Shown piece after piece: positions 34,354-54,820 of a stretch of 64,000 bases of DNA (its first letter is position 1; each line of letters starts with the position of its first letter). The translations under genes were made by a program, and so were the position numbers. Location of the stretch: contig JACQHR010000032.1 in NCBI GenBank assembly GCA_016198905.1, positions 74,390 to 138,389 of the forward strand. The letters are read 5' to 3'. Source of the stretch: Candidatus Omnitrophota bacterium. Its GTDB lineage: Bacteria; Omnitrophota; Gorgyraeia; Aquiviventales; Aquiviventaceae. A model generated the notes under the pieces. It had not been told where the DNA came from. It made no database searches and saw only the letters and a program-made list of their open reading frames with translations.

Positions 34354-34576
34354 GTCCTACCAGCAAAGTCTAAACCGAGTCGCTCCAATTCACCGTTCCA
34401 ACAAAAGAGCGCGCACCACAACAACCTGTTGCGACAAGCCTACGCTTTCCACATCGTAAACGGGTTGCGAGGCATTCTTAAAAATACGCAGGCGCACCAA
34501 GAGCATAAAAACTCCGTAACCTATTGAAAATACAGTAGATAGTTGAAAGTGAGAAATCGGTGGTCAGTTGTCAGTC

Positions 34577-34592
34577 TGGCACAGGACATGCT
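34577..34592 (+). promoter_or_regulatory. Sigma-54 (-24/-12) promoter candidate
   Basis: TGGCACaggacATGCT has GG and GC with canonical spacing (consensus TGGCAC-N5-TTGCW). It lies in an AT-rich 300-nt intergenic region, 69 nt upstream of ATG 34661. Confidence 0.65.
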
Positions 34593-34660
34593 TATTAAGT
34601 TACATGTTCGGTGGGAACTTTCATTAAAGACTGATTAAAAGAGTAGAGATAAGTGAGGAT

Positions 34661-35362
34661 ATGAGTGTCTTGGTGGCAAGGTTGATGAGCGTGAGAGAAG
34701 AGCTTGCACTTGAGCTACAACGCTTCACGCTGCTGTGGCGCTATCAGCACCACGTGCCCCCATTTACGCTGTGGTGGCGCTTGGTGCTCAAGCGCATCTT
34801 TGATGCCGCCTCAGCGCTTGTTGGTGTGCTCCTTGTCAGCCCGGTCATGGCTCTGATCGCGCTGGCGGTCAAATTGGAATCTAAGGGTGCTGTGATTTAT
34901 GCGCAAGAACGCGTCGGGCGGTTTGGCCAGACGTTCAAGATGTACAAATTTCGCTCCATGCGCATCGATGCCGAATTGAGCGGCCCTGTGTGGGCATCGG
35001 CCGAGCATGATCCTCGCCTCACGCGCCTCGGCGGCTTCCTTCGCCACACGCATCTCGATGAACTTCCCCAACTCTTCAACGTCATCAAAGGCGACATGAG
35101 CTTGGTAGGGCCGCGTCCTGAGCGGCCCTATTTTGTTGAGTCGCTCAACCGAGAGATTGCTCGCTACGACGAGCGGCTCCTGATCAAGCCGGGCATGACA
35201 GGCCTCGCCCAGGTCCACTATCGCTACGACCAAACGATCGCAGACGTCGAGAAGAAGCTTCGCTACGACTTGCTCTACGTCAAGCGCATGTGCCTCATGC
35301 TGGACGCGCGAATTCTCGCGTGGACATTGCTCGTGGTGGTGAGTGGACGAGGCATTCGGTAA
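34661..35362 (+). CDS. Polyprenyl-phosphate sugar-1-phosphate transferase (bacterial sugar transferase, EpsL/WbaP C-domain type)
   Basis: KRIFDAASALVGVLLVSPV, YKFRSM, DELPQLFNVIKGDMSLVGPRPERP. Confidence 0.9.
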   Translation: MSVLVARLMSVREELALELQRFTLLWRYQHHVPPFTLWWRLVLKRIFDAASALVGVLLVSPVMALIALAVKLESKGAVIYAQERVGRFGQTFKMYKFRSMRIDAELSGPVWASAEHDPRLTRLGGFLRHTHLDELPQLFNVIKGDMSLVGPRPERPYFVESLNREIARYDERLLIKPGMTGLAQVHYRYDQTIADVEKKLRYDLLYVKRMCLMLDARILAWTLLVVVSGRGIR

Positions 35363-35413
35363 ATGTGGAAACAAGGGTTGGTGAGTTTCATGTCACAACA
35401 CAAGGAGGGGTTG

Positions 35414-36343
35414 ATGAAGCGGTACGCAGTAGCAGTGATTGGAATCCTGCTGAGCCTCGGAGTCGTGGCGACTCCAGCGTCAGCAGCGGTTTTTGTCGCC
35501 GGTGCGGACAACCAGGTTTTCTTCGTGAACTTCGAGAACCTCTATGACTCCACAGGAAAGTGGCTCAACCCGTTTACGGCACCTGTCCCGGGACAGATCT
35601 TGTCCGGGATCATTGGGTTGAACGGTCTTCGTGTCAACAATGTCGACTCCGACTTCGATGACACGACGTTTCAGTTGAGCGGTGTCTTCGCGCAGGAAAT
35701 CGTGTCGATTGACGCCATGACTGGCACGTTAACACTTGGCGTTCCGACAGTGACCACCTACTACAAGGACTTGGACTTGAGTGGTGGGATCACCGCAGGG
35801 GATGACGTGTATAGCACGGGTCTTGCTCCGGGGTCTGAAATGTTCGCCTTCTACCTGCAGCAGAGCCCGGATCCTGTTACCACACTCGAATCCGACGGTA
35901 CGATGCTGGACGACGTGACCAAGGCGACGGACGGTAGCCTATTCCTGACCCTCGGATTCACCGACCCAGGTGCTGGTGTGGACCCTGGATACGCGTTCAC
36001 GGCCTTATTTCCGCCTCCCCTGTTTCCGGCCGGGCTGTCTTTTGCCGGTTTGAACTTGATCCAGAACAACTCAGGGTTCACCTTTGCGGGACTGGACAAC
36101 CCATTTGAGAACGTCTTCAATGGGACCCTTCAGCAGGTTGTGTACCAGACGTCATTTAACCTGAACCCGCCTGGTTTGAACAACCCGAATCCTGATCCAG
36201 GAACTTCGCCCTGGGAGTTCATCAGCAATGACCCGGCACTGATCCACCCTGACACTGTCATTCCTGAGCCGTCCTCGATGTGGTTGCTCGGGATGGGTCT
36301 GGGTAGCTTCGGCGTGTTCCGCCGCAAGAAGTTCTTGGTGTAA
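35414..36343 (+). CDS. PEP-CTERM sorting-domain secreted protein
   Basis: AAGGAGGGG RBS. Signal peptide MKRYAVAVIGILLSLGVVATPASA. C-terminus VIPEPSSMWLLGMGLGSFGVFRRKKFLV (PEP motif + TM + basic tail). Confidence 0.9.
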   Translation: MKRYAVAVIGILLSLGVVATPASAAVFVAGADNQVFFVNFENLYDSTGKWLNPFTAPVPGQILSGIIGLNGLRVNNVDSDFDDTTFQLSGVFAQEIVSIDAMTGTLTLGVPTVTTYYKDLDLSGGITAGDDVYSTGLAPGSEMFAFYLQQSPDPVTTLESDGTMLDDVTKATDGSLFLTLGFTDPGAGVDPGYAFTALFPPPLFPAGLSFAGLNLIQNNSGFTFAGLDNPFENVFNGTLQQVVYQTSFNLNPPGLNNPNPDPGTSPWEFISNDPALIHPDTVIPEPSSMWLLGMGLGSFGVFRRKKFLV

Positions 36344-36377
36344 GACCGTTCGACAAGTGCTTCACCAACCCCTCAAC

Positions 36378-36417
36378 AACACCGCCTCTCTGGGCAGAGA
36401 GGCGGTGTTGTTTGTGT
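36378..36417 (+). terminator. Rho-independent terminator
   Basis: 14-bp perfect stem AACACCGCCTCTCT / AGAGAGGCGGTGTT, GGGC loop, then GTTTGTGTG. Confidence 0.7.
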
Positions 36418-36631
36418 GCCCAGCATGTGGACATGACGAGGAGGTGCAAGTCCTCTGAGGGAGCAGGTCGCAGCGACCTCAAGCGAACCGCAAGGCGACG
36501 ACCGTGAGGTCGGCGCTGAAAGAAGCGGGGAGCGAAGCCGCGCGTCGACGAACAGGAACCGGATACGAGGCGAAGCCGGCCAGCGAATTCTGGGGACAAT
36601 ACGGAATTCTGTTTTGGGGCGGTCGCTTGAG

Positions 36632-37192
36632 CTAGGGACGTGAACGGAAACAGGCGTTGAGGAAGTCCAACAGCTCCGGCTGAGCGAAGGCCTTCGACAA
36701 CTCGCGGACAGTGCGCGTGAGATATCGGCGGTCAAGCCGCGGTCCCTGGTGGCGGACAACCGCTCGCACGTCTTCGCGGTCTTTGGGGCGATTGGAAATG
36801 ATCTTATGGATGATGAGATCCTCGGGGCGGCAGACGCGTACCTGGTGACCGGCGACCTGCTCGAGGGTCGCGCGGGCAATGGCTTTGTGTTCGTAGGGCA
36901 GTGTCGCCCATACCAAGTCGATGCGCACGCCCCCGCGGGTTTCCACTGGCAAGACGTGAGTATCACGAAGGAAGTCGAGCGGCTTCCGAGGAACGATGCG
37001 GAACGCCCGGCGGAGGTCCTGGATCAACGCCGGCCACGCCGTCTCCTCCACTAGCAGGGCAGCATCGACGTCCAGCGTCGCTCGCGGCTCACCCCACACC
37101 AGATTGGCAACGCCCCCGATCACCATGTAGGGCACGCGGTGCTCTTCGAGGAATCTCGCGAGCGCACCCACCGCCTGCTCCAGGGCATTCAT
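36632..37192 (-). CDS. Nucleotidyltransferase-fold protein (putative toxin partner of the RHH protein)
   Basis: YMVIGGVANLVWGEPRATLDVDAALLV fits the minimal NTase pattern G[GS]-x9-13-DxD. ATGA overlap with the upstream RHH gene. Confidence 0.55.
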   Translation of the reverse strand: MNALEQAVGALARFLEEHRVPYMVIGGVANLVWGEPRATLDVDAALLVEETAWPALIQDLRRAFRIVPRKPLDFLRDTHVLPVETRGGVRIDLVWATLPYEHKAIARATLEQVAGHQVRVCRPEDLIIHKIISNRPKDREDVRAVVRHQGPRLDRRYLTRTVRELSKAFAQPELLDFLNACFRSRP

Positions 37193-37491
37193 AGATCGAG
37201 GCCTTGAAGGCGCTCGTGGGTCTTCCGTACACCCCTGAACATCCGGCGGAGCTCGGCTTCGGTGGGCTGGCGGGTCGCCGCACGCTGTCGGTATACATCG
37301 GCCAGCTCCCCTACGCGCGCGAGGCGCTCAGACGCGCCTGCGGCAATCGGCCGGTCACGTTGGATGAGATACAGGCGCAGCGCCTCCCGCACCAGCTCGC
37401 TTTTGGTCCGGTGTTCCTCATCGGCCAACTGCGCCGCCAGCCGGCTCAATTCCGGTGGCATCGAGATCGTCCAGGTCCGCGTCGCCCGCAT
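37189..37491 (-). CDS. Ribbon-helix-helix (CopG-family) DNA-binding protein, putative antitoxin
   Basis: WTISMPPELSRLAAQLADEEHRTKSELVREALRLYL is an RHH pattern. Confidence 0.7.
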   Translation of the reverse strand: MRATRTWTISMPPELSRLAAQLADEEHRTKSELVREALRLYLIQRDRPIAAGASERLARVGELADVYRQRAATRQPTEAELRRMFRGVRKTHERLQGLDL

Positions 37492-37518
37492 GTACCCTCC
37501 ACCTATTGATGTATTACT

Positions 37519-37539
37519 TTATCTTACTAAGTAAGATAA
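37519..37539 (-). promoter_or_regulatory. Perfect palindrome, candidate RHH operator
   Basis: TTATCTTAC-TAA-GTAAGATAA lies 28 nt upstream of the RHH start on the minus strand, in AT-rich sequence. Confidence 0.4.
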
Positions 37540-37604
37540 CATATTTCCTCCTCCCCGTCAACGAAATCGACAGAAGGCTCAGAGGGGTGAAGGAAAAATA
37601 CAAC

Positions 37605-38948
37605 TTAGAAGAAGTAGGCGAGTTCGGTGTAGAGGCGGCTGTTGTCGTTGAAGCGGCCGAACAGCCCTGAGGAATTGCCCTGAAAGACATCCGCACCAAC
37701 CCGCACTTGCAGGCTGTTGGTGGCTTTCCAGGTGAGTTGTGGCCGGTAGAGCAGATCCTCTTTGCCAATGCCGGCGATAAGCAGGATCTCCGGCTCAAGC
37801 TTGCCATCCAGCAGGTCGGTCTTGAGCCGCATGGAGAGATGCGTGCGCAGGGCTTCCTCATTCGCCAGAAACCCCTCAAAGTTGCCGATGACGCGCTGCA
37901 TGAGCTGTACGTTGGCCTCGATGTGGCCAAACGACCGGTCCACCCCGAGCAGATAATCGACGACCGGTCGATGGACCACGCCATCAGGATCTTGCGTATC
38001 AAACGTGGAGAAAAAAGCGTGCGGGTTGACCACGAGCTCGCCCTTGAGCACAATGTCCTCCAAGTCCTTCGAGAAGCTCACTCCTAAGAAGTTCGCCCGC
38101 CGATACTCCGGGGCAAACGTGTAGACCCCGCCGTTAATCGTCCGAAAGAGCACCGGGAACTTGTCCCACGTATAAAAGTAAAATGCGCTCACATCCCACC
38201 CATCCAACAAGTAGCCGACCCGCCCCCCAACTTCGCTATTGCTGAAGCTCGCAGGCGGTTTCGAGGGATCGGTGAATGAGGCCGAGCGGCCTTCCGGGAC
38301 GGGCAGCGGGAAGACGAACTCCGAACCACTGACGCCGAGCTTGTGAAACGCGCGCACCGGCAGCCACACGAATTCACCGTGCGCGTTGCCCTCGGAGGCC
38401 TCGACATCAAGGGCCCACTGCGGGATGCGAATCAAATCAAAATCCGGCAGGACGTACTCTCGCAGATTTTTCGCGTTGACGACGTCGGCGAAAAACAAGC
38501 CCACCGCATCGCCCCACACGATCTGCTGCTTGCCAAGCCGCACATCGAAGGGGCCGTTCGAGTAGTCCAGATACGTTTCGCGGATCTCTCCGACGAGCTG
38601 TTGGCTATGCTTGGCGGGGCTCGAGAAGTTATCCGTCGCCGCGTACACCGGATCGTAGTACGCGCGCTGGGTGGCTCGGTAGCTTAACGCGTCGGTGAGA
38701 TGGCCGCGTTCGGTGAGGAGCACGCCATTTCTGGTTTTGGTGAATTCGCGTGGATGTCCGACACGGTAGGCGGTTTCTTGGAAGAGTTTGCCGCTCAGTC
38801 CCAACCGCTGTTTGATGGAGATGAGCGTCGAAGCGATTACGGCCTCGCGCGGCGATGGTGCTCTCGTCGTCTCATCCGCAGGCTCGGCAAAGGCGGCCAC
38901 TGAACCGAAGACTAACGAGCACACAAGCCACCACGGAGTCGCACACAT
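37605..38948 (-). CDS. Outer-membrane beta-barrel protein (unknown family)
   Basis: Signal peptide MCATPWWLVCSLVFGSVAAFA. Alternating-hydrophobicity strands. C-terminal ...LYTELAYFF (terminal Phe, an OMP signature). Confidence 0.6.
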   Translation of the reverse strand: MCATPWWLVCSLVFGSVAAFAEPADETTRAPSPREAVIASTLISIKQRLGLSGKLFQETAYRVGHPREFTKTRNGVLLTERGHLTDALSYRATQRAYYDPVYAATDNFSSPAKHSQQLVGEIRETYLDYSNGPFDVRLGKQQIVWGDAVGLFFADVVNAKNLREYVLPDFDLIRIPQWALDVEASEGNAHGEFVWLPVRAFHKLGVSGSEFVFPLPVPEGRSASFTDPSKPPASFSNSEVGGRVGYLLDGWDVSAFYFYTWDKFPVLFRTINGGVYTFAPEYRRANFLGVSFSKDLEDIVLKGELVVNPHAFFSTFDTQDPDGVVHRPVVDYLLGVDRSFGHIEANVQLMQRVIGNFEGFLANEEALRTHLSMRLKTDLLDGKLEPEILLIAGIGKEDLLYRPQLTWKATNSLQVRVGADVFQGNSSGLFGRFNDNSRLYTELAYFF

Positions 38949-38957
38949 GCGCCTATC

Positions 38958-39725
38958 TTACTCCATAAACTTCTTCATGTAATCCTTTGTGAAGTATTTC
39001 TCGGGCAGCGGGGTCACCGTCATCTGATCATACGTGATCGTGGAGCGCTGATCCTTCACCGTCGCGTCATGCATGACGAGTTGTGAGGGCCGCAGCATCC
39101 CGCCCAGCAGCCGGTAGTCTTCATAGGAACAGGTTTTGAGGAGGCGTCCAGACACGGCGTAAAACTCCGCGCGAGCAGGCGCAAACGTGTCGTGGTCCAC
39201 CCACAGCACGACTCGGGCATACGTGACATCCGGTGCCTTCGCTTTCAAGTCGAGCACGTCGTAGGTGCGATCCTCGAGGCGCTCTTGCTTCGTGAGCGCG
39301 GGAGTGTAGTCCCCGGAGAAATTAGCCCGCGCGATGTCGCCGTTTGCCACGTCGCCCATCAGCCGTTCACGCAACGAAATGCGCAGGGGTTTCGAAATCG
39401 TCGGGAGAAAGACCCACAGATCCTTGCCGCGCATGAGCATGACGCGCCCCGTATCGATCGGAGGGCTCAGGGTTTGCACGACGGCGCGGTCGCGCCCCTT
39501 CACGAGCACGCGGTACGTGGCCGTCGTCGACGAGCCGTGCGGCTTCACGCTCGTGATGGTCGCCATCACGATGTAGTCCATCTGGGGATTTCTCACCTCG
39601 TCGGCTTTCTCGAGAATCGCCTCAGCGGTGAGGGACGGCTCCTCGGCGGCGACGGGAGAGACGGCACGAGCGCACAGGAGCGTGATCGCGACGCTCGCGA
39701 AGAGCTCACGCATGACGCAGCGCAT
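38958..39725 (-). CDS. LolA-like outer-membrane lipoprotein-sorting / lipid-carrier protein
   Basis: Signal peptide, then ILEKADEVRNPQMDY..., LMRGKDLWVFLP and ISLRERLMG, as in the LolA-like (DUF4367/LolA_like) family. Confidence 0.6.
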   Translation of the reverse strand: MRCVMRELFASVAITLLCARAVSPVAAEEPSLTAEAILEKADEVRNPQMDYIVMATITSVKPHGSSTTATYRVLVKGRDRAVVQTLSPPIDTGRVMLMRGKDLWVFLPTISKPLRISLRERLMGDVANGDIARANFSGDYTPALTKQERLEDRTYDVLDLKAKAPDVTYARVVLWVDHDTFAPARAEFYAVSGRLLKTCSYEDYRLLGGMLRPSQLVMHDATVKDQRSTITYDQMTVTPLPEKYFTKDYMKKFME

Positions 39726-40968
39726 CGGCCACGCTCAGGCGCGAGGCCTGATAGGCCGGGAAGAACGAGGAGATGAGCGACGTGATGAGCGAGAGGACGA
39801 AGGAAAAGACGAGCACCGACGGCACGATGACCGGCTCCGAGATCCACGACATCGACGCCCCCGGCGGAGGCGGCATCGGGATGCCGACGTGCCGGATGAG
39901 CAGCGTGATCGCCGTCCCAATGGCGATCCCCAGGCACCCGCCGATCAAGCCTAACGTCGCGCCCTCCAACAGGAAGAGCTGCCACACTCCTTGGCGTGTG
40001 GTGCCCAGCGCCATGATCGTGCCGATCTCGCTCGTGCGCTCCACGACCGCCATGTTCATCGTGTTGTAGATGCTGAGGATGACAATGGTCGCGACGACCG
40101 CCTTGAGGATCAAGAACATCCGCCAGAGAAACGCCTTCGACTTGCCGTACTCGTCATTCAATTCCTGCCACGCTTTGACTTCGAGCGATAGGTGGCGTTG
40201 GACGAAGAGCTCTCTGAGGGTCAGCTTGACGCGATCGGTATCCGACGTGCGTCGGAGCATCACCACGAGCGACTGCACCGACTCGGTTTGCAGCAGCTGC
40301 TGCGTGGTGCCAAGGGGCAGACGCACGGCGTAATCGTCAAACGCTTTGGACGTGGTATAAAAGATACCCGCCACCGTCGCATCGATGGCGTTGATGGAGC
40401 CTGCAATGGTGTGCGAGACGAGGATGAGTCCATCGCCGGGTTTCGCGTCGATACCTTTGGCGAGCCCTCGGCCGAGGATGATGTGATACGGCTCATTCGC
40501 GTTGAGCGGCTCGCCGGATTCGATGATCGCGCCACCCAGTAGGGCCACGTTGCGCCCGGCCGCGGAGCGGTCGGTCAGACGGACCGAGGGCTCGTAGTCC
40601 GGCTCGACCCCCTGCCCAAAACACGAGACCGTATTCTCGCCCGTGCTCAACAGTCCGGAAAACTGCAGCCGGCGCGCAACCGAAACCACCCCAGGGACCT
40701 TCTTGACCAGCGCGATGATATCATCCGGATGATCGATGAGATAAGAGAACGGACGGGCGCTGCCTTTGTCGAAGAATCCCCGCGTGTAAATTTGTAGGTG
40801 CCCGGTGTGCGCCTTGATGTAGCTTTCCTGCATGCGGTACAGGATGTCCTCAAAGAATCCGCCGACGAAGATGATCGCCGTGCAGCCAAAGGCGATTGCC
40901 GCGAGCGTGATCACCGAGCGCGTGCGGTGCCTGAAGACGTTGCGGATCGCCAGACGCAGGGTGATCAT
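39706..40968 (-). CDS. ABC transporter permease, FtsX/MacB/LolCE type
   Basis: N-terminal TM, a ~230-aa periplasmic domain, and a C-terminal FtsX 3-TM bundle (VERTSEIGTIMALGTTRQGVWQLFLLEG). Confidence 0.85.
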   Translation of the reverse strand: MITLRLAIRNVFRHRTRSVITLAAIAFGCTAIIFVGGFFEDILYRMQESYIKAHTGHLQIYTRGFFDKGSARPFSYLIDHPDDIIALVKKVPGVVSVARRLQFSGLLSTGENTVSCFGQGVEPDYEPSVRLTDRSAAGRNVALLGGAIIESGEPLNANEPYHIILGRGLAKGIDAKPGDGLILVSHTIAGSINAIDATVAGIFYTTSKAFDDYAVRLPLGTTQQLLQTESVQSLVVMLRRTSDTDRVKLTLRELFVQRHLSLEVKAWQELNDEYGKSKAFLWRMFLILKAVVATIVILSIYNTMNMAVVERTSEIGTIMALGTTRQGVWQLFLLEGATLGLIGGCLGIAIGTAITLLIRHVGIPMPPPPGASMSWISEPVIVPSVLVFSFVLSLITSLISSFFPAYQASRLSVADALRHA

Positions 40969-41645
40969 GCGGCACGCGCGAGTTGGCCGTCGGAGAGCAT
41001 GACGATGCGGTTGGCCATCTGCATGACTTTTTGGTCATGCGTCGAGAAGATAAACGTGGTGCCTCGTTGCTGGTTGATGGATTTCATCAGCGCCAGGATG
41101 TCCTGGCCGGTCTTGTGGTCGAGGTTGGCGGTGGGTTCGTCAGCGAGAATGATCAGCGGTTGGGTCACGATGGCGCGGGCAATGGCCACGCGCTGGCGCT
41201 GGCCGCCGCTCAACTCTAAGGGTTTGTGGCGCTCGAACGTGGCAAGTCCGACGCTGGCGAGCGCTTCTTGGGCGTGTCGGCGTCGTTCGCGCGACGAGAT
41301 ATCGCGCGTCGCTAAGGGATACTCGACGTTTTCGAGTGCCGTGAGGACCGGCAACAGGTTGAAATTTTGGAAGATGAACCCAAGCTTGACGGCGCGGATG
41401 ACGGCGAGCTCATCCGAGGAGCGCGTGGCGATGTCGACCTGGTCGATTCGCACCGTGCCGGACGTTGGCATCTCGATGCAGCCGATGAGATTCAACAGCG
41501 TCGTTTTGCCACTACCTGAGGGGCCAGCAATGGCGAGAAATTCGCCGCGTTTGACGACGAGGTCCACGCCTTTCAGGGCAGGCACCCGGACCTTCCCGAG
41601 CCAGTATTCCTTGGCGGCTTGCGCGACTTCAACGAGCGGCGTCAA
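40965..41645 (-). CDS. ABC transporter ATP-binding protein, LolD/MacB type
   Basis: GPSGSGKTTLLN (Walker A), LSGGQRQRVAIARA (signature), ILADEPTANLD (Walker B). ATGA overlap with the permease gene. Confidence 0.9.
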   Translation of the reverse strand: MTPLVEVAQAAKEYWLGKVRVPALKGVDLVVKRGEFLAIAGPSGSGKTTLLNLIGCIEMPTSGTVRIDQVDIATRSSDELAVIRAVKLGFIFQNFNLLPVLTALENVEYPLATRDISSRERRRHAQEALASVGLATFERHKPLELSGGQRQRVAIARAIVTQPLIILADEPTANLDHKTGQDILALMKSINQQRGTTFIFSTHDQKVMQMANRIVMLSDGQLARAA

Positions 41646-41662
41646 CAGATTCCACCCATGTG

Positions 41663-42736
41663 TTAGCTCTCCAGACTCAAAACGTCTTCAACCGGCCGAC
41701 GGGGCGTGCGCGCCGTCGGGGGTGCCGCGAATCCAATCCTAAACAGCATGATCGGTGTGCGGTGCGCGAGCGCAGGAAACACCCTCGCCAATTGCGCTCC
41801 TGTGTCTTCGACGAGCGCGCGATGACGGGGCGAGAGCCCTTGACCCTCCGCAAGCCGGCAGCGCAAGAGCAAGCAGATCATGCCGGTGATGGGTTGAAAC
41901 GCGAGTCCTTGCAACGTCGACGTCAGCCACAACCGCTCGAGCACTTCACCGGCGTGGACAAAATCCTCCGGCCGCTGCCCCTCCACCGTCAACAGCCCAA
42001 GCGCGGCAGAGCGTTGATACGTCCGTTGCGTGCGAAGCGGCAGCAAGCGCGTGACACCGCACGCCGCAAGCGTGTGCGCGACAGGCCACGAGCCGAGCAG
42101 GTGAAAGCCCGGCCGCTCAACGGGATGGAGTTCGAGTGATCCGATGGGCATGCCGTCGCCGCTTCCTTGCGGCGTCCATCGCAGCCATCGGTAGAGACCA
42201 TCATGCAGCGCGCGATTCTCGAAGAGAATTTGGTCGTTGCGGGCAGCCAGCGCGGCGGCAGTTCGTTTAGCTTGATTAGTCTCAACGAGCTCGAGCGACG
42301 TGCCAGGGCCGTTGCGGGCGATCGCCAGCAGTGCATCGCGAAGGGCTGCGGTGAGCGGCGTGCGCTGATACGGCCGCCGATTCGCGCAACGCGCTTCCAG
42401 GGCTGACATCAGAGGATCATGGTGCGGCGTCATAGGCTGAAACGAGATGCGTGCGGCATGAGACTCTCCATGTCCACGAGGGAACAGCTCCGCAGAAACG
42501 TCATACCCGCGAGACCGGGCCACGAGGCGCATGTTGGTGATGGTCGCCCCCAACGCGATCCATGAGGCGGTATGCTGCACGTCGTAGAGAGACTCGGCTC
42601 GCTCATAGACCAACATGAGATCAAGCTCCCGCTCGTTCCAGACGAAACGCCACGGCTGACAATTATCGCCCGAGGGAGCGAGCAGGCCCGCGCGGACGAT
42701 CTGCGCGACGATGCTGCGTTCAAGGTGAGGCGCCAT
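41663..42736 (-). CDS. Nitroreductase-family protein (double-length)
   Basis: IVRAGLLAPSGDNCQPWRFVW is the nitroreductase N-terminal signature. At 357 aa it suggests a duplicated or extended fold. Confidence 0.65.
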   Translation of the reverse strand: MAPHLERSIVAQIVRAGLLAPSGDNCQPWRFVWNERELDLMLVYERAESLYDVQHTASWIALGATITNMRLVARSRGYDVSAELFPRGHGESHAARISFQPMTPHHDPLMSALEARCANRRPYQRTPLTAALRDALLAIARNGPGTSLELVETNQAKRTAAALAARNDQILFENRALHDGLYRWLRWTPQGSGDGMPIGSLELHPVERPGFHLLGSWPVAHTLAACGVTRLLPLRTQRTYQRSAALGLLTVEGQRPEDFVHAGEVLERLWLTSTLQGLAFQPITGMICLLLRCRLAEGQGLSPRHRALVEDTGAQLARVFPALAHRTPIMLFRIGFAAPPTARTPRRPVEDVLSLES

Positions 42737-43613
42737 GCCCGAACGTGCGCCGGATATACCACAGTTTCAATTGCTGCCACGGATGACGATTGCCGCCCCA
42801 CAGGGTGCCGATACGATAGCGCAACCGATAAGGATCAAATTGGGCGTAGCGAGGCACGCCCAGCGGCGCGCGGCGTTTGAGGATCAGGTTCATGACCTCT
42901 GCGGCGACGACGCCGGCGCACAAGTTGATCGCGATGCTCGAGGAGGGGCCGCGATGTTCTTTCAAGTTGACGCTGGCGGGATCGAGGTAGGGCAGGTGCA
43001 ATGCGGCGGGTGCAAGGCCGACCGCAAAGCGCGCCAGTTGCTCAAACGCGCTCATCGAATCATCGATGGCCATGAACCGATCAAAGCTTGGGCCATCAGG
43101 CATGAAGACCAACAAGGCTGCGCTGAATCCCATCGGCCCGCATGTCACGATGGGAAGACGCTTGGCGTGCGCGCGCTGAAAGAGCAGCCGCCGCGCCTCT
43201 ATGCAGAAGAAATCCAGTCCATCGACGACGACGTCGCATCCTGTGAGAAACTCGTCGATGTTGTTGGCATGAATGCCCTCAGGGAAGCTTCGGATCGATG
43301 CGGCGGGGTTGATGGTCTTAGCCATGTCTGCCATCACCGTGGTCTTCGGTTGCCCGATGGTCTGGAGCGTTGCGCCGGGCTGTCGGTTGAAGTTTCTGAG
43401 CTCGAACGTGTCGTGATCCGCAATCGTGAAACGCTCGAACCCTAGGCGAGTTAACGCGAGGAGATGGGCCCCGCCAACGCCACCCATGCCAGGAATGGCG
43501 ACGGTGGCTTGCCGGAGCCGTTGTTGTTCGTCAGAGGTGAGGAGGCCACGATTCGCCGCAAAGGCTTCTTCATAACTGAACGGTGCAGTCATCGGCATTG
43601 GAACAGGTGCCAT
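42720..43613 (-). CDS. ThiF/MoeB/HesA-family E1-like adenylyltransferase
   Basis: VAIPGMGGVGGAHLLALTRLGFERFTIADHDTFELRNFNRQ (GxGxxG Rossmann + NxNRQ). Confidence 0.85.
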   Translation of the reverse strand: MAPVPMPMTAPFSYEEAFAANRGLLTSDEQQRLRQATVAIPGMGGVGGAHLLALTRLGFERFTIADHDTFELRNFNRQPGATLQTIGQPKTTVMADMAKTINPAASIRSFPEGIHANNIDEFLTGCDVVVDGLDFFCIEARRLLFQRAHAKRLPIVTCGPMGFSAALLVFMPDGPSFDRFMAIDDSMSAFEQLARFAVGLAPAALHLPYLDPASVNLKEHRGPSSSIAINLCAGVVAAEVMNLILKRRAPLGVPRYAQFDPYRLRYRIGTLWGGNRHPWQQLKLWYIRRTFGHGASP

Positions 43614-43671
43614 TATAGCACAGCACCGTGGCGCACATGGCGACGAGAGCGACCGGAAAGGCGCGAAGGAC

Positions 43672-44559
43672 TTACGACTGCGGAAGCATCAATCCAAACT
43701 GGGGCGGGCTGGTGTGCGCAGCATTGAGGATATCCGCGAACGGATATGTGGGATAGCAGCTTTTGATGTGCGCCAGTTCAGTCGGGCTGGCCGAGGCGAA
43801 GACAGGCAGCGTATGAACGAACAGCGTTTCCAAGTCGCTTGGTGAAAACTTCAGCTTCTCTGCGAACGGGGCCGGTGAAGGTTTCTTGCCATAAAAGAGT
43901 TGGTAGGCCGCATGCGAGGCGGCGTGCTGCTCAGTGTCCCGGATGTTCAGGTGTCTGGCCACGGAAGGATTGCTGTTGGCGGCCGTATATGTTTTAAGCC
44001 CCCCCAATGGTTGGAGCTGGAGAAATTCGTAAAGAATCTGATGCTTCGGGTTGAAGCATGCAACCAGTTCATCAGTCGGGGTCGAGCTACGGAGATAGTC
44101 GAACATGATTTTGAACAATCTCAGCGTGAAGAGCAGCTTCTTCGCGTGGAATAGGGTGAATACCTTTTGGCCGAAGAGCCGGCCATCTAAGGCCAGCATG
44201 GACACTTCAGCCACCCGAAGGCCTTGACGACGTAGTACGTCTACCTCGGTCTTGTACGCCTCATCCATGGGTAAGCCTAGAGGGGAATCTTCGACGACGG
44301 AGACCGTTCCAATAATACCCAAGCGACGGTGCACGGCAATGAAGGTCGCCGTTGTGGGAAGCGCATGGTACAAAGACAGCTTCAGCCGCGCAGGATTCGG
44401 TTTGACGTAGTTGCGTTTCAGGTACTCGGTATAGACAAGCTGACTGGCAATCTTGAACTCCTCAACGGTTTTCACGATGCGGAACTCGACCGGACGAAGA
44501 AATTGAGGGACCGTGTCATAGAGTCGGCCAAGCAGTGAAATCGAAGGACCGGTGGTCAT
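43672..44559 (-). CDS. N-acyl amino acid synthase-like acyltransferase (FeeM/NasY-like; PEP-CTERM/exosortase-associated type)
   Basis: FRIVKTVEEFKIASQLVYTEYLKRNYV...GTVSVVEDSPLGLPMDE...VAEVSMLAL resembles the LuxI-like GNAT N-acyl amino acid synthases. Assignment is from pattern memory only. Confidence 0.55.
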   Translation of the reverse strand: MTTGPSISLLGRLYDTVPQFLRPVEFRIVKTVEEFKIASQLVYTEYLKRNYVKPNPARLKLSLYHALPTTATFIAVHRRLGIIGTVSVVEDSPLGLPMDEAYKTEVDVLRRQGLRVAEVSMLALDGRLFGQKVFTLFHAKKLLFTLRLFKIMFDYLRSSTPTDELVACFNPKHQILYEFLQLQPLGGLKTYTAANSNPSVARHLNIRDTEQHAASHAAYQLFYGKKPSPAPFAEKLKFSPSDLETLFVHTLPVFASASPTELAHIKSCYPTYPFADILNAAHTSPPQFGLMLPQS

Positions 44560-44561
44560 AA

Positions 44562-44990
44562 TTACTGCAAATACCTCTTCAGCAGCTCTGCCGCAACGAA
44601 ATGGCAGTACTGAGCAAAGGTTGTTTCATTGCGGGCAGGAGAAAATGTCACCCCGACGGCGTAGTCTTTACCTCCACGCTTCTGACGACACCAACCGATC
44701 TGCCCAAAGAGCATGAGCGGTTCAGGTCGATCCAGCATGGCGAGGACAATCTGACACGGACTGGCCACAGCGATCATTTGTGAGATGGAGAACTCGATGC
44801 CAGCGCCACTGATCGTCATTGTCTTGCTGGAGCCGGTAATCTGTTCATCGCCGGATCGAATAGTGTAGGACAATGTGAGGGTGAGCGGCAGGCGTTCCGC
44901 TGCTCGCTGATCGACGGACAAGACATGCATTTCCGTCGCGTCCTGCCGAATGGCGACGTCATGCTGCACTGTGGTTTCTCGTTTCCGCAT
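44562..44990 (-). CDS. PilZ-domain (c-di-GMP-binding) protein
   Basis: QRAAER (RxxxR) followed by TISGAGIEF (D/N-x-S-x-x-G-like). 142 aa. First gene of the minus-strand operon. Confidence 0.65.
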   Translation of the reverse strand: MRKRETTVQHDVAIRQDATEMHVLSVDQRAAERLPLTLTLSYTIRSGDEQITGSSKTMTISGAGIEFSISQMIAVASPCQIVLAMLDRPEPLMLFGQIGWCRQKRGGKDYAVGVTFSPARNETTFAQYCHFVAAELLKRYLQ

Positions 44991-45344
44991 TCAGCACTCG
45001 CTCGGTTCGTTAATCTGTTTAAACAACCAGACGAACTATACCATATAGAGCACGATATTATCAAGATTTCAACTACTTAAATAATCATTACACTTTTGAT
45101 GTATCTTTTTGAAATTCAGAGTGTTGTTTTATGTACGTTTCGATGGCTCATTTCACCACTCTACACGTTGTAACTGCCCTGATTTTTGGACACTATGTCT
45201 AAAAAAGCAGACATCGGTATGATGTTCTGGATTTGTGGTACAGCGCATAGTGTTTATATAGGTATTTTTATAGTTATTTATCGTAACATATTTAACAGTA
45301 GCATGTTATGAGCAGTACGGATAATGTAGCCACTTACTAGGAGT

Positions 45345-45360
45345 TGGTACAGAACCTGCT
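45345..45360 (+). promoter_or_regulatory. Sigma-54 (-24/-12) promoter candidate
   Basis: TGGTACagaacCTGCT has GG-N10-GC spacing. It lies in a 430-nt AT-rich divergent intergenic region, 65 nt upstream of ATG 45425. Confidence 0.6.
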
Positions 45361-45424
45361 CTTAATCTCTCTCAAATAATTGGAATTTCCTTGGCCTAAA
45401 TAGCCTAAGGAGGAAAGACAAGGC

Positions 45425-45892
45425 ATGCGAAACACATCTCGGTGTCTGCTCATTGGATTGGCGATCTCCGTACAACTTCTAACATCAGGTTGTGGGAGCG
45501 GTATCGGGGGGTTCTCCAGCCTTTTTGGCGCGAAGGCGTTCGCGGATCTGCTGGATTCCTTAAACGGCGGCTCAGGGGGGTCCGGTTCCGAAGGAGATCT
45601 GAACATCGCATCCATCACGCAGAACTTTTTTGGGAGCGACAGCGGGGTGTTCAATGAGCTCTACGATGAGTTGGGAGATTGGGATGATGAGGATCTCTCT
45701 TCATTGTTTGGAGACTCTGGCCATCCGGGAAGCGGTAATGGTAATAATGAGGGTTCGACGTCAACAACGGTCGTCGAGCAACAAGTTGCCAGACTGCACA
45801 ACCCTGAACCAGCCAGCCTCGCCTTGTTCGGCAGCGGCTTAACGGGTGTCGCCTGCCTTCGACGGCGCAAGACGCGCAAGACATCGTCCTGA
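45425..45892 (+). CDS. Small acidic PEP-CTERM protein with lipoprotein-type signal peptide
   Basis: N-terminus MRNTSRCLLIGLAISVQLLTSGCGSG (Cys after the hydrophobic core). C-terminus NPEPASLALFGSGLTGVACLRRRKTRKTSS. Confidence 0.85.
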   Translation: MRNTSRCLLIGLAISVQLLTSGCGSGIGGFSSLFGAKAFADLLDSLNGGSGGSGSEGDLNIASITQNFFGSDSGVFNELYDELGDWDDEDLSSLFGDSGHPGSGNGNNEGSTSTTVVEQQVARLHNPEPASLALFGSGLTGVACLRRRKTRKTSS

Positions 45893-46004
45893 CGATCGTT
45901 CACACGGTGCAGGGCGCGCGCGTGACTGCGCGTTTTGCAAGAGGTCCTGAAGCGCCCCATACTGATTCATCGCGGTCCACGTAACTCCAGACACGAGGAG
46001 CACC

Positions 46005-46904
46005 ATGCGAGCACTCTTACTGGCAGTTCGCGAGACAGCACAATTGTTTGGCAGGCAGCGCATATTATGGCTGCCATTTGTGTGTGTGACATTCGTTGAA
46101 GCGCTCTTCGTAGGACTTGTGTGGCTTGCCCCGCACGCCCCGTTTTCCGACGTCCTAGCTCCCCCGATCCGATTCTTTTTTGGAGATCGCGTCCTGCATT
46201 ATCCGGCCCATCTGTGGTTTCTCTACCATGTGACCCGACATGCCTACATCGCCGCCACGGTGCTCGTCGGAGCATTTATGACCGGGGTCGCCTGCGCCAT
46301 GGTCGGTCAGATCCACACCGGAGCGATGTTGTCGTTTCGTGACGTGCTCGTTAATCGGCAAGTGCATTACGGCCGCATGCTGCTGGTATGGATCATCAGC
46401 TGGGGAATCGCGACGAGCATCGCGGAAGGATCAGCCCGCGTTGCGCCGAAAAGCCTTCTGGGACTGCTCGTTGTCGTCGGCATTACCGTGGTACTTCAGG
46501 CGTTGTTTGTCTACGCGATTCCTGCGGCGGTGTTTCAGCGCGCAAAGTGGTGGAAAGCCCTGCTCTCCAGCGTGCGAGAAACAGCCCGATATCCTCTCAG
46601 CACCTTAGCTGTTGTGACGCCTCCCACGCTTCTTGTGATTGGGCTCGCAGTCCTCGTGCCGCCCGTGAAAGTGGCGGAATGGATGGGACGCACGCAGCCC
46701 GAATGGGCGGTGGCTTGCGTGGCAGTTCGGCTCATCGTGTGGATGGTGGCCGATGCGCTATTGACCGTCGCGACGGCACACCTGTGGTGGACGCATCGAG
46801 CGGTTTCGCGTGCCGCGAATCCCGCGGTTCAGGTCGCTACAGCGCGTCATCCGCACAAAGCGGCGCAGCAGCCACCAACGCAGAAACACCCTCTTGTCGC
46901 CTAA
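46005..46904 (+). CDS. Polytopic membrane protein, unknown function
   Basis: About 6 hydrophobic segments and no recognised motif. It precedes the TPR lipoprotein and the exosortase. Confidence 0.5.
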   Translation: MRALLLAVRETAQLFGRQRILWLPFVCVTFVEALFVGLVWLAPHAPFSDVLAPPIRFFFGDRVLHYPAHLWFLYHVTRHAYIAATVLVGAFMTGVACAMVGQIHTGAMLSFRDVLVNRQVHYGRMLLVWIISWGIATSIAEGSARVAPKSLLGLLVVVGITVVLQALFVYAIPAAVFQRAKWWKALLSSVRETARYPLSTLAVVTPPTLLVIGLAVLVPPVKVAEWMGRTQPEWAVACVAVRLIVWMVADALLTVATAHLWWTHRAVSRAANPAVQVATARHPHKAAQQPPTQKHPLVA

Positions 46905-46944
46905 CGCGTCACATCGATCACACAAACCTGCAGCGGAGTTGGTG

Positions 46945-47907
46945 ATGTTGAGAATGAGTAGAACACGCACGAGCGACACGAACGTGCGATTCTGCGTTGT
47001 TTCATGCGCCTCGATCCTGTCTGCAGTGGTCATCCTGACTGGTTGTAGCGCCAACTACAACGGCGAGCGCCTCTTTTGGAAGGCGCAACAATTGCAAGCG
47101 GCTATTATCAAGGATCCTGCCAAAGCGTCGCCTGCGCAGTTTGCTACCGCGGTGAATGCGTTTGACCAGGTTATCCAGAAGGTGCCAGGGACGATGTGGG
47201 CGGCGCGAGCCCAGGTATCCATCGGGTCACTGTACGCGATGGAGCGACAGTATGAGAAAGCGAGAGCGGCCTATGCGCTCGTCCTCCAAAATTACAATCA
47301 ATATAAGCAGTTCTGCTTGGCGGCCCGTTTGGCGACAGCGAGAACGTATGAACTGGAGCAAAATGGACCGGAAGCGATCGCGGTCTACAAGGATATCTCC
47401 GAGTACTACCCCTGGAGCGTGCCCGGGCTAGAATCCCCGCTGCATATCGCCCGGATGTATGAGCAGCGCAAGGATACCGAAGCAGCGACACAGGCCTACC
47501 AGCGCGCGGTCCGTATGTATACCAGGCTCCTTCCAGATGCGCCGACTCCTGAATTGACGATGCAGATCAAAGGGTATCTGACCTTGGCCTACCAGCGGCT
47601 CGGCCAGTGGGAGGACGCAGTGAATTTGCTCCAGGAACTTGCTGCGGTCAAGAGCGGCGTCAACAAACCGCTTGTGCTGCTCACGTTGGCGTCAATCTAT
47701 CAAACGAAGCTCAAAGAGACGCAGAAAGCTCAAACTGTGTACACACAGCTCGTTCAGGAGTTTCCAACGAATCCATTTGCGAAAGCCGCGAAAGCGCAGC
47801 TCGAACAGTTGGGCGCTCCGGTGCCGGAGACCGCTGCGGAGACGTCTGCGGTCCAGACACCAGCGATTCCGGCCACACCTGTGAAGGGGCCGGCTGGAGG
47901 CCGATAA
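46945..47907 (+). CDS. TPR-repeat lipoprotein
   Basis: Lipobox AVVILTGC. Repeated A-x-Y..A/L helical-pair patterns (e.g. AQVSIGSLYAMERQYEKARAAYALVLQNY). Start placed at internal ATG 46945. Confidence 0.7.
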   Translation: MLRMSRTRTSDTNVRFCVVSCASILSAVVILTGCSANYNGERLFWKAQQLQAAIIKDPAKASPAQFATAVNAFDQVIQKVPGTMWAARAQVSIGSLYAMERQYEKARAAYALVLQNYNQYKQFCLAARLATARTYELEQNGPEAIAVYKDISEYYPWSVPGLESPLHIARMYEQRKDTEAATQAYQRAVRMYTRLLPDAPTPELTMQIKGYLTLAYQRLGQWEDAVNLLQELAAVKSGVNKPLVLLTLASIYQTKLKETQKAQTVYTQLVQEFPTNPFAKAAKAQLEQLGAPVPETAAETSAVQTPAIPATPVKGPAGGR

Positions 47908-47910
47908 CGC

Positions 47911-48789
47911 ATGGGAGTTTTGCCTCGTTCAATCCAACCCACCTCTCGCCAGCTGATATTTAGTCTCTTTTACGCGGCCTGCTTCATGGCGCTCTTCTGG
48001 CCGACATTTACCTGGCTGGCCGAGCGGTTTGATGCCCACGACTCCTTCTATTCGCACGGCTGGCTCATTCCATTTGCCAGCGCGTGGCTGATTTGGCAGC
48101 GTCGCGTTCAATGGGAGGCGTGTCCCCGAGCCGCCAGCTATCGCGGGTTAGCGCTGCTCGCACCGTCACTCCTCATCCATCTCGTGGCGACGCGGCTTGA
48201 CCTGCATTTCGCATCGGGATTTGCGATGTTGGGCGCGATCTGGGGACTGGTGTGGACGTGTTGGGGTTGGCGGATGTTATGGACCTTGCGGTTTCCGATG
48301 CTGTTTCTCCTCTTCATGGTGCCGCTGCCAGGCGTCTTGCTCATTTCCATCAGCTTCAAGATGAAAATGATGGCGGCGACTCTCGCGACTCACGCGCTGC
48401 ACCTTATGCAGATTCCCGCGGAACGAGCCGGCTCAACCATCAACGTCCCCGGAGTCTCGGTCGTGGTCGATGATACCTGCAGCGGCCTCCGCTCGCTCAT
48501 CAGCCTGATCGCGCTGTCGGTGTTTTGGACGTCGTGTATGCCGGCCGCCTCGCGTCAGTGGCAGAAGCTGGCCATCGTGGCCGCGTCGATACCTATTGCG
48601 TTGGCGGCGAACATGGTGCGGATTCTTGCTCTGGTCTTGCTTGCGGCCATCTACGGATCGCACGCCGCTGAAGGCTACTTGCACTACGGCTCTGGGATTG
48701 TGGTGTTTGTCGTCGCACTGGCCATCCTCGCGTGGATGACCCGATGGATTCAACAATGGTCACGTCCCTCACTCGGCCTCAACCAATAG
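47911..48789 (+). CDS. Exosortase (EpsH/Xrt family)
   Basis: W..D..FYSHGWLIPF, VVDDTCSGLRSLISL (catalytic Cys context), ANMVRI and HYGSG. 8 or more TM segments. Confidence 0.9.
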   Translation: MGVLPRSIQPTSRQLIFSLFYAACFMALFWPTFTWLAERFDAHDSFYSHGWLIPFASAWLIWQRRVQWEACPRAASYRGLALLAPSLLIHLVATRLDLHFASGFAMLGAIWGLVWTCWGWRMLWTLRFPMLFLLFMVPLPGVLLISISFKMKMMAATLATHALHLMQIPAERAGSTINVPGVSVVVDDTCSGLRSLISLIALSVFWTSCMPAASRQWQKLAIVAASIPIALAANMVRILALVLLAAIYGSHAAEGYLHYGSGIVVFVVALAILAWMTRWIQQWSRPSLGLNQ

Positions 48790-49379
48790 CCCTTCTCTTC
48801 TTGGCGGCTTCCGCAGGCTTGCTGTGGACGGGGCAGCACCATGCCTCGCGCCCTGTGATGGCGCGCGAACCCATGCCCACGACGCTGGGAACATGGACCT
48901 CGACACCCATCCCGGTGGATCGGCGCGCGATCGACATTCTGGAAACAGAAGACGTCGAGCTGCTGGAGTATAAGCAAGCTCAGGAGCCTCCAGTGTGGCT
49001 GGCGCATGTGGGCGGCTTCGGGAACCGAGCCGCGTTTCACCCGCCGGAACTCTGCTATGTTGGAAGCCATTTCGAGGTGTTGGAACGCGGACCGATCACG
49101 GTCACCGCCAATGGCCAGTCGCGCCGACTGATGCGGCTGGTGATCGGGCAGGAAAAGGCGCGGTTCGAGGCGTGGTACTGGTTTACCGCCAATGGCCGCG
49201 TGACGCCCAACTACTATCAGCAGCAACTCTGGCTGCTCTTGGATGCGCTCTACAGCAAGCCCATGGGCGGGACGCTCATGCGCATTTCGACGGCTTTTGA
49301 TGACCCTGCGCGGTCACACCAGCGCTTGCTGGCATTTCTGACGGCTTGGGAGACCAGGCATCAACCGACGACACCATAA
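48732..49379 (+). CDS. EpsI-family exosortase-associated protein
   Basis: N-terminal TM and FHPPELCYVGSHFE (the conserved H-x-P-x-x-C of EpsI). Overlaps the exosortase 3' end. Start is ambiguous (48732, 48744 or 48756). Confidence 0.75.
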   Translation: MDDPMDSTMVTSLTRPQPIALLFLAASAGLLWTGQHHASRPVMAREPMPTTLGTWTSTPIPVDRRAIDILETEDVELLEYKQAQEPPVWLAHVGGFGNRAAFHPPELCYVGSHFEVLERGPITVTANGQSRRLMRLVIGQEKARFEAWYWFTANGRVTPNYYQQQLWLLLDALYSKPMGGTLMRISTAFDDPARSHQRLLAFLTAWETRHQPTTP

Positions 49380-51975: not shown

Positions 51976-52040
51976 CTGCACGGGACGCCAAGTCCGTGAC
52001 GTTGTAATCTACAGCTCATGTCTGAGTCTTGGGACGGGTG

Positions 52041-54536: not shown

Positions 54537-54820
54537 TATGTGTCGGGAAGGTACGATATTTCAGAATTGTAACCATCATAGCACATTTCATGCCAATCGG
54601 CAAATGGCTCGTTGTGGCGGCTCTGGAGTCGTTCAGAGCCAGCCCCGAGCGTTAACTCCTCTTCCGATAACGAGATCGCGCTTGATTTCGAAGAAGAGAT
54701 AGGCTAACGTAGACCCACTTTCCGTGGCACCCATCCGGACAACGGGTGGTGAAACGATGCGTTGCGACCTTCAGGCCAAGCAACGGCGTCCGTCACGCAA
54801 GCCAACGATAAGGAGGGTGG

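Follow-up and report, generated by a model that had tools for sequence, protein, structure and literature searches.

The exosortase/PEP-CTERM locus described here lies on contig JACQHR010000032.1 of a Candidatus Omnitrophota bacterium (assembly GCA_016198905.1), within a stretch of 64,000 nucleotides (positions 74,390 to 138,389 of the forward strand) that was analysed as a whole and is called the window below; coordinates count from its first letter. Two intergenic sites in this window, named promoter A and promoter B, are likely to be enhancer-dependent sigma-54 promoters of one conserved regulatory module that belongs to this locus in the Omnitrophota. Promoter A precedes the gene of a priming sugar transferase together with a PEP-CTERM gene, and promoter B precedes a second, small PEP-CTERM gene and the exosortase genes. 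An NtrC-type activator, a histidine kinase and sigma-54 itself (rpoN) are encoded in the same region. The locus contains the following features:

34517-34541, + strand: upstream activator site A (UAS-A), a candidate enhancer, TAACCTATTG-N5-..GATA, whose left half is perfect; the TGG of promoter A follows 60 nt after the 5' end of the site
34577-34592, + strand: predicted sigma-54 promoter A, TGGCACaggacATGCT (TGGCAC-aggac-ATGCT), with a predicted start at about 34603
34661-35362, + strand: priming sugar transferase Bac_transf, 233 amino acids (PF02397; TIGR03025, 290.8 bits against a cut-off of 295.55)
35414-36343, + strand: PEP-CTERM protein 1 (TIGR02595, 23.6 bits against 16)
44562-44990, - strand: divergent PilZ-domain gene with a sigma-70-like promoter of its own at 45064-45035 (-)
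45284-45308, + strand: upstream activator site B (UAS-B), a candidate enhancer, TAACatatttaacagtagcatGTTA; the TGG of promoter B follows 61 nt after the 5' end of the site
45345-45360, + strand: predicted sigma-54 promoter B, TGGTACagaacCTGCT (TGGTAC-agaac-CTGCT), with a predicted start at about 45371
45425-45892, + strand: small PEP-CTERM protein 2, 155 amino acids (TIGR02595, 21.2 bits against 16)
46005-46904, + strand: multi-pass membrane protein of 299 amino acids, with no Pfam or NCBIfam match
46810-47907, + strand: TPR protein with an uncertain start; best matches YbgF and BamD, both below cut-off
47911-48789, + strand: exosortase (TIGR02602, 146.3 bits against 105.55)
48732-49379, + strand: exosortase-associated EpsI (TIGR02914, 76.8 bits against 42.8)
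49386-50585, + strand: PAS-HisKA-HATPase histidine kinase, H-box HELNSP at residue 186
50575-51975, + strand: NtrC-type sigma-54 activator with REC, AAA+ and Fis-type helix-turn-helix (HTH) domains, the presumed binder of the two activator sites
52029-53093, + strand: PocR/GAF sensor-domain protein
53130-54536, - strand: rpoN (TIGR02395, 402 bits against 277; RpoN box ARRTVAKYR at residue 445)
54575-54603, - strand: composite rpoN promoter, with a sigma-70-type TTGCCG, a 17-nt spacer and a TATGAT preceded by TG

With TIGR02602, TIGR02914 and TIGR02595 all scoring above their cut-offs, the locus encodes an exosortase/PEP-CTERM sorting system. The exosortase stayed below the cut-off of the XrtA subtype (TIGR03109, 175.5 bits against 208), and the transferase, a short form of 233 amino acids, below that of EpsB_2 (TIGR03013, 273.5 against 393.35 bits); the NCBI version of the transferase starts 8 codons later and counts 225 amino acids. 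The reading frame of PEP-CTERM protein 1 opens at 35363, with the likely start at 35414, followed by a signal peptide. In the small PEP-CTERM protein 2 there is a lipobox-like signal, Gly, Ser and Asp are abundant, and the C-terminal tail reads HNPEPAS...RRRK. On the regulatory side, the histidine kinase contains no hydrophobic segment and is thus soluble, and the regulator has a Walker A motif (GESGTGK at residue 164) and the loop motif GSFTGA at residue 212. Family scores and motifs thereby bear out the initial annotation, which had placed rpoN, an NtrC-type activator and a kinase beside the exosortase.

The same annotation had proposed sigma-54 promoters for the transferase/PEP-CTERM operon and for the second PEP-CTERM gene, and both sites were found at the positions and with the sequences it gave. 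Read directly, the GG at 34578-79 and the GC at 34590-91 of promoter A are spaced GG-N10-GC, as are the GG at 45346-47 and the GC at 45358-59 of promoter B. Both sites are intergenic and on the coding strand; the last base lies 69 nt upstream of the ATG at 34661 for promoter A and 65 nt upstream of the ATG at 45425 for promoter B, in agreement with the claimed distance of 65-69 nt. The surrounding DNA is indeed unusually AT-rich. The GC content is 0.44 in the intergenic region 34354-34660 and 0.36 in 44991-45424, compared with a mean of 0.613 for the window, and the only 300-nt segments below 0.47 fall within these two regions, the most AT-rich stretches of the whole sequence.

Compared with the consensus TGGCAC-N5-TTGCW, promoter A agrees at 10 of 11 positions and promoter B at 9 of 11. 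A weight matrix that approximates the Barrios 1999 consensus scored them at 15.2 and 13.9 bits, respectively. When both strands of the window (128 kb) were scanned with this matrix, the top five matches comprised a site upstream of rpoN (the best), promoter A, promoter B and two badly placed matches. One candidate between convergent genes, TGGAACgggccTTGCT (56052-56037, -), has no upstream palindrome of the kind described below and was treated as chance; a TGGTAC at 45236 was rejected, as it lacks the GC element. Near promoters A and B, no good sigma-70-type promoter was found on the + strand. At gathering thresholds, Rfam revealed no known RNA element, such as a riboswitch, in either leader, and neither the two leaders nor the gap that follows the small PEP-CTERM gene folded into a structure better than shuffled sequences.

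Short motifs of this type may also arise in AT-rich intergenic DNA by chance. The bare pattern TGGYAC-N6-TGCT, which was chosen post hoc, has three matches in the window where 0.17 are expected, and the third match, TGGTACacaacCTGCT (36132-36147, -), differs from promoter B at one position and lies antisense in the first PEP-CTERM gene, where the + strand codes for QQVVYQ. It shows four mismatches to the upstream palindrome and has no antisense counterpart in the matrix-hit list of the related loci; most probably it is a chance match, with intragenic sigma-54 binding as a possible alternative. In favour of chance as the origin of promoters A and B as well, one can cite this intragenic match and the loose consensus TGGCAC-N5-TTGCW, which with two mismatches allowed gave 36 matches against 32.7 expected and is uninformative. 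By contrast, shuffled sequences reached the observed matrix score in just 5 of 5000 cases for region A and 24 of 5000 for region B (3 of 5000 for the region upstream of rpoN), and the explanation by chance is refuted by the conservation of the sites and by their coupling to a palindrome at a fixed distance.

To follow this conservation, we used about 50 syntenic Candidatus Omnitrophota loci, taken from contigs encoding homologues of the 299-amino-acid protein and from a metagenome scan. A FeeM-like neighbour protein as scan query gave only two distant loci, and the relatives were then reached via the 299-amino-acid protein. The gene order of the locus is identical in more than 20 Omnitrophota contigs: small PEP-CTERM gene (with a divergent PilZ gene before it in some loci), 299-amino-acid protein, TPR protein, exosortase, EpsI, PAS kinase, regulator and PocR/GAF protein, with rpoN in convergent orientation. 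In all 12 loci with sufficient sequence, the PocR/GAF gene has the regulator gene on one side and rpoN on the other; rpoN converges on the regulator operon in 11 of the 12 loci whose sequence extends far enough downstream. A Bac_transf gene and one or two PEP-CTERM genes are often found near the cassette. The 299-amino-acid family, with 71 homologues at 40-58% identity, all from Omnitrophota-type contigs, is so far specific to the Omnitrophota. Its members share the invariant motifs LHYPxHLWF and WLAPHPPF, and their genes always stand after the small PEP-CTERM gene and before those of the TPR protein and the exosortase, which makes the protein a candidate new component of the exosortase system.

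For each non-redundant locus, the best matrix match on the coding strand served as conservation score. Upstream of Bac_transf, 15 of 16 loci had a site of at least 14.4 bits at a distance of 50-139 nt to the start codon, compared with a maximum of 10.6 bits in the opposite-strand control. Upstream of the small PEP-CTERM gene or the 299-amino-acid gene, about 30 of about 45 loci had a site of at least 12 bits, with TGGTAY-N5-CTGCT kept. Outside these site classes, comparable matches occur no more often than 1.4e-5 times per strand-nucleotide (about 0.004 in 300 nt), so that recurrence at orthologous positions in dozens of loci cannot be due to chance. In motif-anchored alignments, the flanking intergenic DNA was otherwise neither conserved nor alignable. 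Across the phylum the base at -23 is specific to the promoter class, TGGCAY-N5-CTGCT for the transferase promoters and TGGTAY-N5-CTGCT for the PEP-CTERM promoters, which suggests that the two classes may be deliberately tuned to different strengths. Additional strong sigma-54 sites were observed before a signal-peptide protein in locus L013 (6743-6758, +, without the palindrome) and before larger PEP-CTERM proteins in L011 (1337-1352, +) and L016 (597-612, +), indicating that the regulon varies among lineages.

When the upstream regions were aligned at the TGG, a 25-bp palindrome, TAAC-N17-GTTA, emerged. In 52 non-redundant loci (510 kb) there were 95 matrix matches of at least 12 bits, 39 of which carry this dyad with at most one mismatch, and in 31 of these 39 the TGG follows 58-62 nt after the 5' end of the dyad. 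The symmetry extends inwards, with T at position +8 and A at position +16, each in 33 of the 39, and the best copies have the form TAACCTATTG-N5-CAATAGGTTA. In the window, UAS-B is the sole exact TAAC-N17-GTTA (0.09 expected). The genes behind such combinations of dyad and promoter are always of four kinds, namely Bac_transf, the small PEP-CTERM gene (tail HNPEPAS...RRR), whose family recurs there in many loci, a homologue of the 299-amino-acid gene, or a larger PEP-CTERM protein, and no combination was found in the large exopolysaccharide cluster at 5.5-28.5 kb with its glycosyltransferase, Wzy and deacetylase genes. Promoters A and B hence unite the sequence features of the sigma-54 class: they have its spacing and consensus, lie between genes, share the window with rpoN and an intact activator, and are conserved together with an activator site. 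The initial annotation had suggested looking for such activator sites about 80-150 bp upstream. A conserved site does exist; it lies nearer, its centre being about 50 bp upstream of the -24 GG and about 74 nt upstream of the predicted starts.

This dyad is probably the binding site of the adjacent NtrC-type regulator. As an alternative, the palindrome could be bound by a different factor (a repressor, an architectural protein or a regulator of the PilZ gene, for instance), and the true enhancer could lie elsewhere or be absent. The promoter distance is short for DNA looping, palindromes rich in A and T arise more easily in an AT-rich region, and at promoter B the dyad stands in an intergenic region that is shared with the PilZ gene. 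Nevertheless, the dyad follows the sigma-54 sites and not the PilZ gene, since it is also present at Bac_transf promoters, which have no PilZ neighbour. Furthermore, its phase relative to the TGG is fixed at 58-62 nt, and it is absent from the rpoN-class sites, which, like the chance matrix matches, show at least three mismatches to it. Half-sites two helical turns apart also suit a dimeric HTH regulator of the Fis type. Another factor at the palindrome is therefore distinctly unlikely.

Concerning the reach of promoter B, the initial annotation had assigned it to the second PEP-CTERM gene. This gene is a predicted target, but probably not the sole one: the genes after promoter B share its strand and are separated by no more than 112 nt, and a terminator scan detected none, so promoter B probably drives the whole exosortase operon including kinase and regulator. 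Control of this operon is also supported by five loci in which the module stands directly before the 299-amino-acid gene. A 5-bp GC hairpin with a 6-nt loop and UUUU (about 45917-45936, +) follows the small PEP-CTERM gene. It is no stabler than shuffled sequences and was rejected as a terminator for being too weak; it might still attenuate read-through into the exosortase operon.

In the mechanism we propose, RNA polymerase with the locally encoded sigma-54 would wait as a closed complex on TGGYAY-N5-CTGCT until the soluble PAS kinase, upon an intracellular cue, phosphorylates the adjacent NtrC-type regulator. The regulator would bind TAAC-N17-GTTA as a dimer about 50 bp upstream of the -24 GG, oligomerise, and spend ATP to remodel the closed complex of RNA polymerase and sigma-54 (E-sigma54) and open the promoter. 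Promoter A would then yield a PEP-CTERM protein and the priming sugar transferase, the enzyme of the first, committed step in exopolysaccharide synthesis. Promoter B would yield an abundant small PEP-CTERM protein and, by read-through, the 299-amino-acid protein, the TPR protein, exosortase, EpsI, kinase, regulator and PocR/GAF protein. With regulator and kinase inside the operon of promoter B, the circuit would include positive feedback, and rpoN would be self-limited through occlusion of its sigma-70-type promoter by an embedded sigma-54 site. The PocR/GAF protein, which has no output domain, may act as a co-sensor or modulator of the activator.

The promoters could also be genuine sigma-54 promoters that are served by an enhancer-binding protein encoded elsewhere, with the adjacent kinase and regulator controlling something else. 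The binder of the dyad is one that we infer, our view covers 64 kb of the genome, and the best families of the regulator (NtrC, AtoC and ZraR) include none that is specific to PEP-CTERM systems. Against this stands the position of both genes downstream of promoter B, in a strand-continuous string with the exosortase. They accompany the module wherever the contig reaches, the regulator being present in 23 related loci with 59-82% identity, and among 40 proteins of the window that were scanned, the regulator is the sole match to a sigma-54-activator family. We thus regard activation from elsewhere as unlikely.

Several points weigh against reading A and B as sigma-54 promoters of one module. The reading is built from sequence, and the organism is uncultivated; the matrix contains no original counts. 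The intragenic antisense match shows that the bare motif can arise without function and is insufficient evidence. In about one third of the loci, the matrix gave no match of 12 bits or more ahead of the 299-amino-acid gene, some of these loci having short or truncated upstream sequence. The right half of UAS-A is degenerate, with GATA for GTTA, a variant seen in 7 of the 39 sites. The gap between dyad and TGG amounts to just 35 bp, which is unusually close, and no IHF-like site was noticed by eye, no scan for one having been made. Finally, a weak sigma-70-like match at 45058-45085 (+; 9 of 12 positions) could be an additional promoter. On balance, we still consider an enhancer-dependent sigma-54 module the likely explanation.

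The third strong sigma-54 site is found upstream of rpoN and is the best matrix match in the window; it had been overlooked in the initial annotation. The site, TGGCATgaaatGTGCT (54595-54580, -), fills the spacer between the sigma-70-type elements exactly and ends 44 nt before the rpoN ATG. It is kept in 15 of 16 loci, including L006 (13904), L009 (18357), L011 (18057), L012 (18578) and L013 (18551). The aligned consensus reads TTG...gTTGGCA...AATgTGCTATagT, an arrangement of TTG-N5-TGGCAY-N5-TGC-TATAGT in which TGn-TATAGT forms an extended -10 element. No dyad enhancer was found at the rpoN promoter. Judged from this arrangement, occlusion of the housekeeping promoter of rpoN by E-sigma54 is the most economical reading and would result in negative autoregulation; positive autoregulation that depends on an activator is a possible alternative.

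From here one could go further and regard sigma-54 as dedicated to this locus, with an apparently self-limited rpoN, kinase, activator, PocR/GAF protein, sortase, substrates and priming transferase forming one self-contained unit. We consider this doubtful. If it were true, one unit would gate the whole surface and exopolysaccharide programme of very small, possibly host-dependent cells, and it might be their only sigma-54 regulon.

Further observations concern the neighbourhood of the module. The place of the PilZ gene is shared with L006 (4117-4569) and L011 (8218-8667); PilZ is a possible receptor of cyclic di-GMP, and its conserved place hints at a link between cyclic di-GMP and the surface programme. 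In the gap after the operon of promoter A, a match to the group II intron D1-D4-3 (RF02001; 36498-36612, +; 44 bits against a gathering threshold of 32) is the sole Rfam match. No obvious intron-encoded protein lies nearby, and it may be an intron remnant. Between this operon and a cluster with a DUF1302 gene, a nucleotidyltransferase related to AbiEii/DUF2204 and a ribbon-helix-helix protein of the CopG type (36632-37491, -) resemble a toxin-antitoxin insertion. The DUF1302 cluster itself (37605-44559, -) is conserved, being found also in L009 (175-8815) and L015 (214-8729), and encodes one or more FeeM-like N-acyl synthases, a ThiF-like adenylyltransferase, an Acg/nitroreductase-like protein, a MacB/LolCDE-like ABC transporter, a LolA-like protein and the DUF1302 protein; it may represent a lipid or lipopeptide export system tied to the exosortase locus. 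Within the exopolysaccharide cluster, an open reading frame of 1913 amino acids (20642-26383, +) lies among GT4, Wzy-like, deacetylase and GT2 genes.

Control of PEP-CTERM genes by sigma-54 was predicted in 2006 for Proteobacteria only and has so far been tested in one betaproteobacterium. Here, the same logic appears in an uncultivated phylum of the PVC group, with a non-orthologous kinase and regulator and a different enhancer. The use of different parts for the same logic suggests that the coupling of sigma-54 to exosortase-sorted surface proteins is a design that recurs, possibly by convergence. In the Omnitrophota, TAAC-N17-GTTA, about 35 bp and TGGYAY-N5-CTGCT make up a testable cis code by which regulons can be read from metagenome-assembled genomes, and a single switch may serve the sortase with its substrates, the regulator itself and the committed step in exopolysaccharide production. 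To a specialist the idea as such is unsurprising; newly added are the code of enhancer plus promoter, a predicted regulon widened to the transferase and the exosortase operon, and the composite rpoN promoter.

The closest known counterpart is the proteobacterial PrsK/PrsR/PrsT system, which the initial annotation had named as the matching model. Haft et al. (2006; PMC1569441) described, before proteobacterial PEP-CTERM genes, a 17-nt motif 1 that ends in TTTACA and, across a spacer of about 63 nt, a sigma-54 motif. The combined motifs had a profile that matched PrsK, PrsR and PrsT, and according to the authors they were confined to Proteobacteria. For pepA of Aquincola tertiaricarbonis, RpoN1 dependence, a mapped start and TGGCAC/CTGCTT elements have been reported (PMC9850573), and its -12 element resembles the CTGCT found here. 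The comparative analysis of sigma-54 by Francke et al. (2011; PMC3162934) contains nothing on PEP-CTERM.

Our locus shares with the Prs system the -24/-12 promoters and an upstream activator site before PEP-CTERM genes with long non-coding leaders, a REC-AAA+-Fis-HTH regulator and a histidine kinase near exosortase and exopolysaccharide genes, and the spacing between promoter and start codon (65-69 nt, compared with a mean of 71 nt in that system). These likenesses, a TPR protein nearby and the right half-site, which is often GTTACA and recalls the TTTACA end of motif 1, would fit an orthologous member of that system. The scores speak against it. The regulator reached 376.8 bits for PrsR (TIGR02915) where 502.6 are required, ranking this family fifth after NtrC, AtoC, ZraR and LuxO, and NCBI labels it with the generic name of a sigma-54-dependent Fis-family regulator. 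The kinase reached 82.5 bits against 300 for PrsK (TIGR02916), a transmembrane kinase, with the C-terminal ATPase region alone aligning, and the TPR protein (46810-47907) gave no match to PrsT (TIGR02917) at E <= 0.001. Moreover, the kinase is a soluble PAS protein instead of a multi-pass membrane kinase, and a 25-bp dyad 35 bp from the promoter takes the place of a 17-nt motif about 63 nt away (motif 1 was compared by its published text). In the Omnitrophota, rpoN is physically linked to the locus, and the module also serves the priming transferase and probably, with the regulator among its genes, the exosortase operon. True membership is thus very improbable: the functional logic of the PrsK/PrsR model stands, and the scores below cut-off together with the differing enhancer indicate an analogue.

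Among NtrC-type systems in general, NtrC, AtoC and ZraR provide the best full-length family matches of the regulator and share its domain architecture (Walker A, a GAFTGA-type loop and the Fis-type HTH) and a dyad-symmetric site; as in these systems, autoregulation of the kinase-regulator operon is probable. The scores do not reach equivalog level (435 against 558.6 bits for NtrC, 424.7 against 714 for AtoC), the targets are cell-surface and exopolysaccharide genes, and an apparently single dyad lies nearer to the promoter than the usual -100 to -150.

For the rpoN promoter, too, there are known parallels. According to work cited in PMC4591121, sigma-54 represses when its site overlaps another promoter, and negative autoregulation of rpoN in Rhizobium leguminosarum is cited in PMC3538637. 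An enrichment of predicted sigma-54 promoters before rpoN has been reported for several classes, Verrucomicrobiia and Planctomycetia among them (PMC12316311). The Omnitrophota resemble the known cases of autoregulation and occlusion in having a strong sigma-54 site just upstream of rpoN that overlaps sigma-70-type elements, and differ from them in that this site sits exactly inside the 17-nt spacer, an arrangement conserved across an uncultivated phylum.

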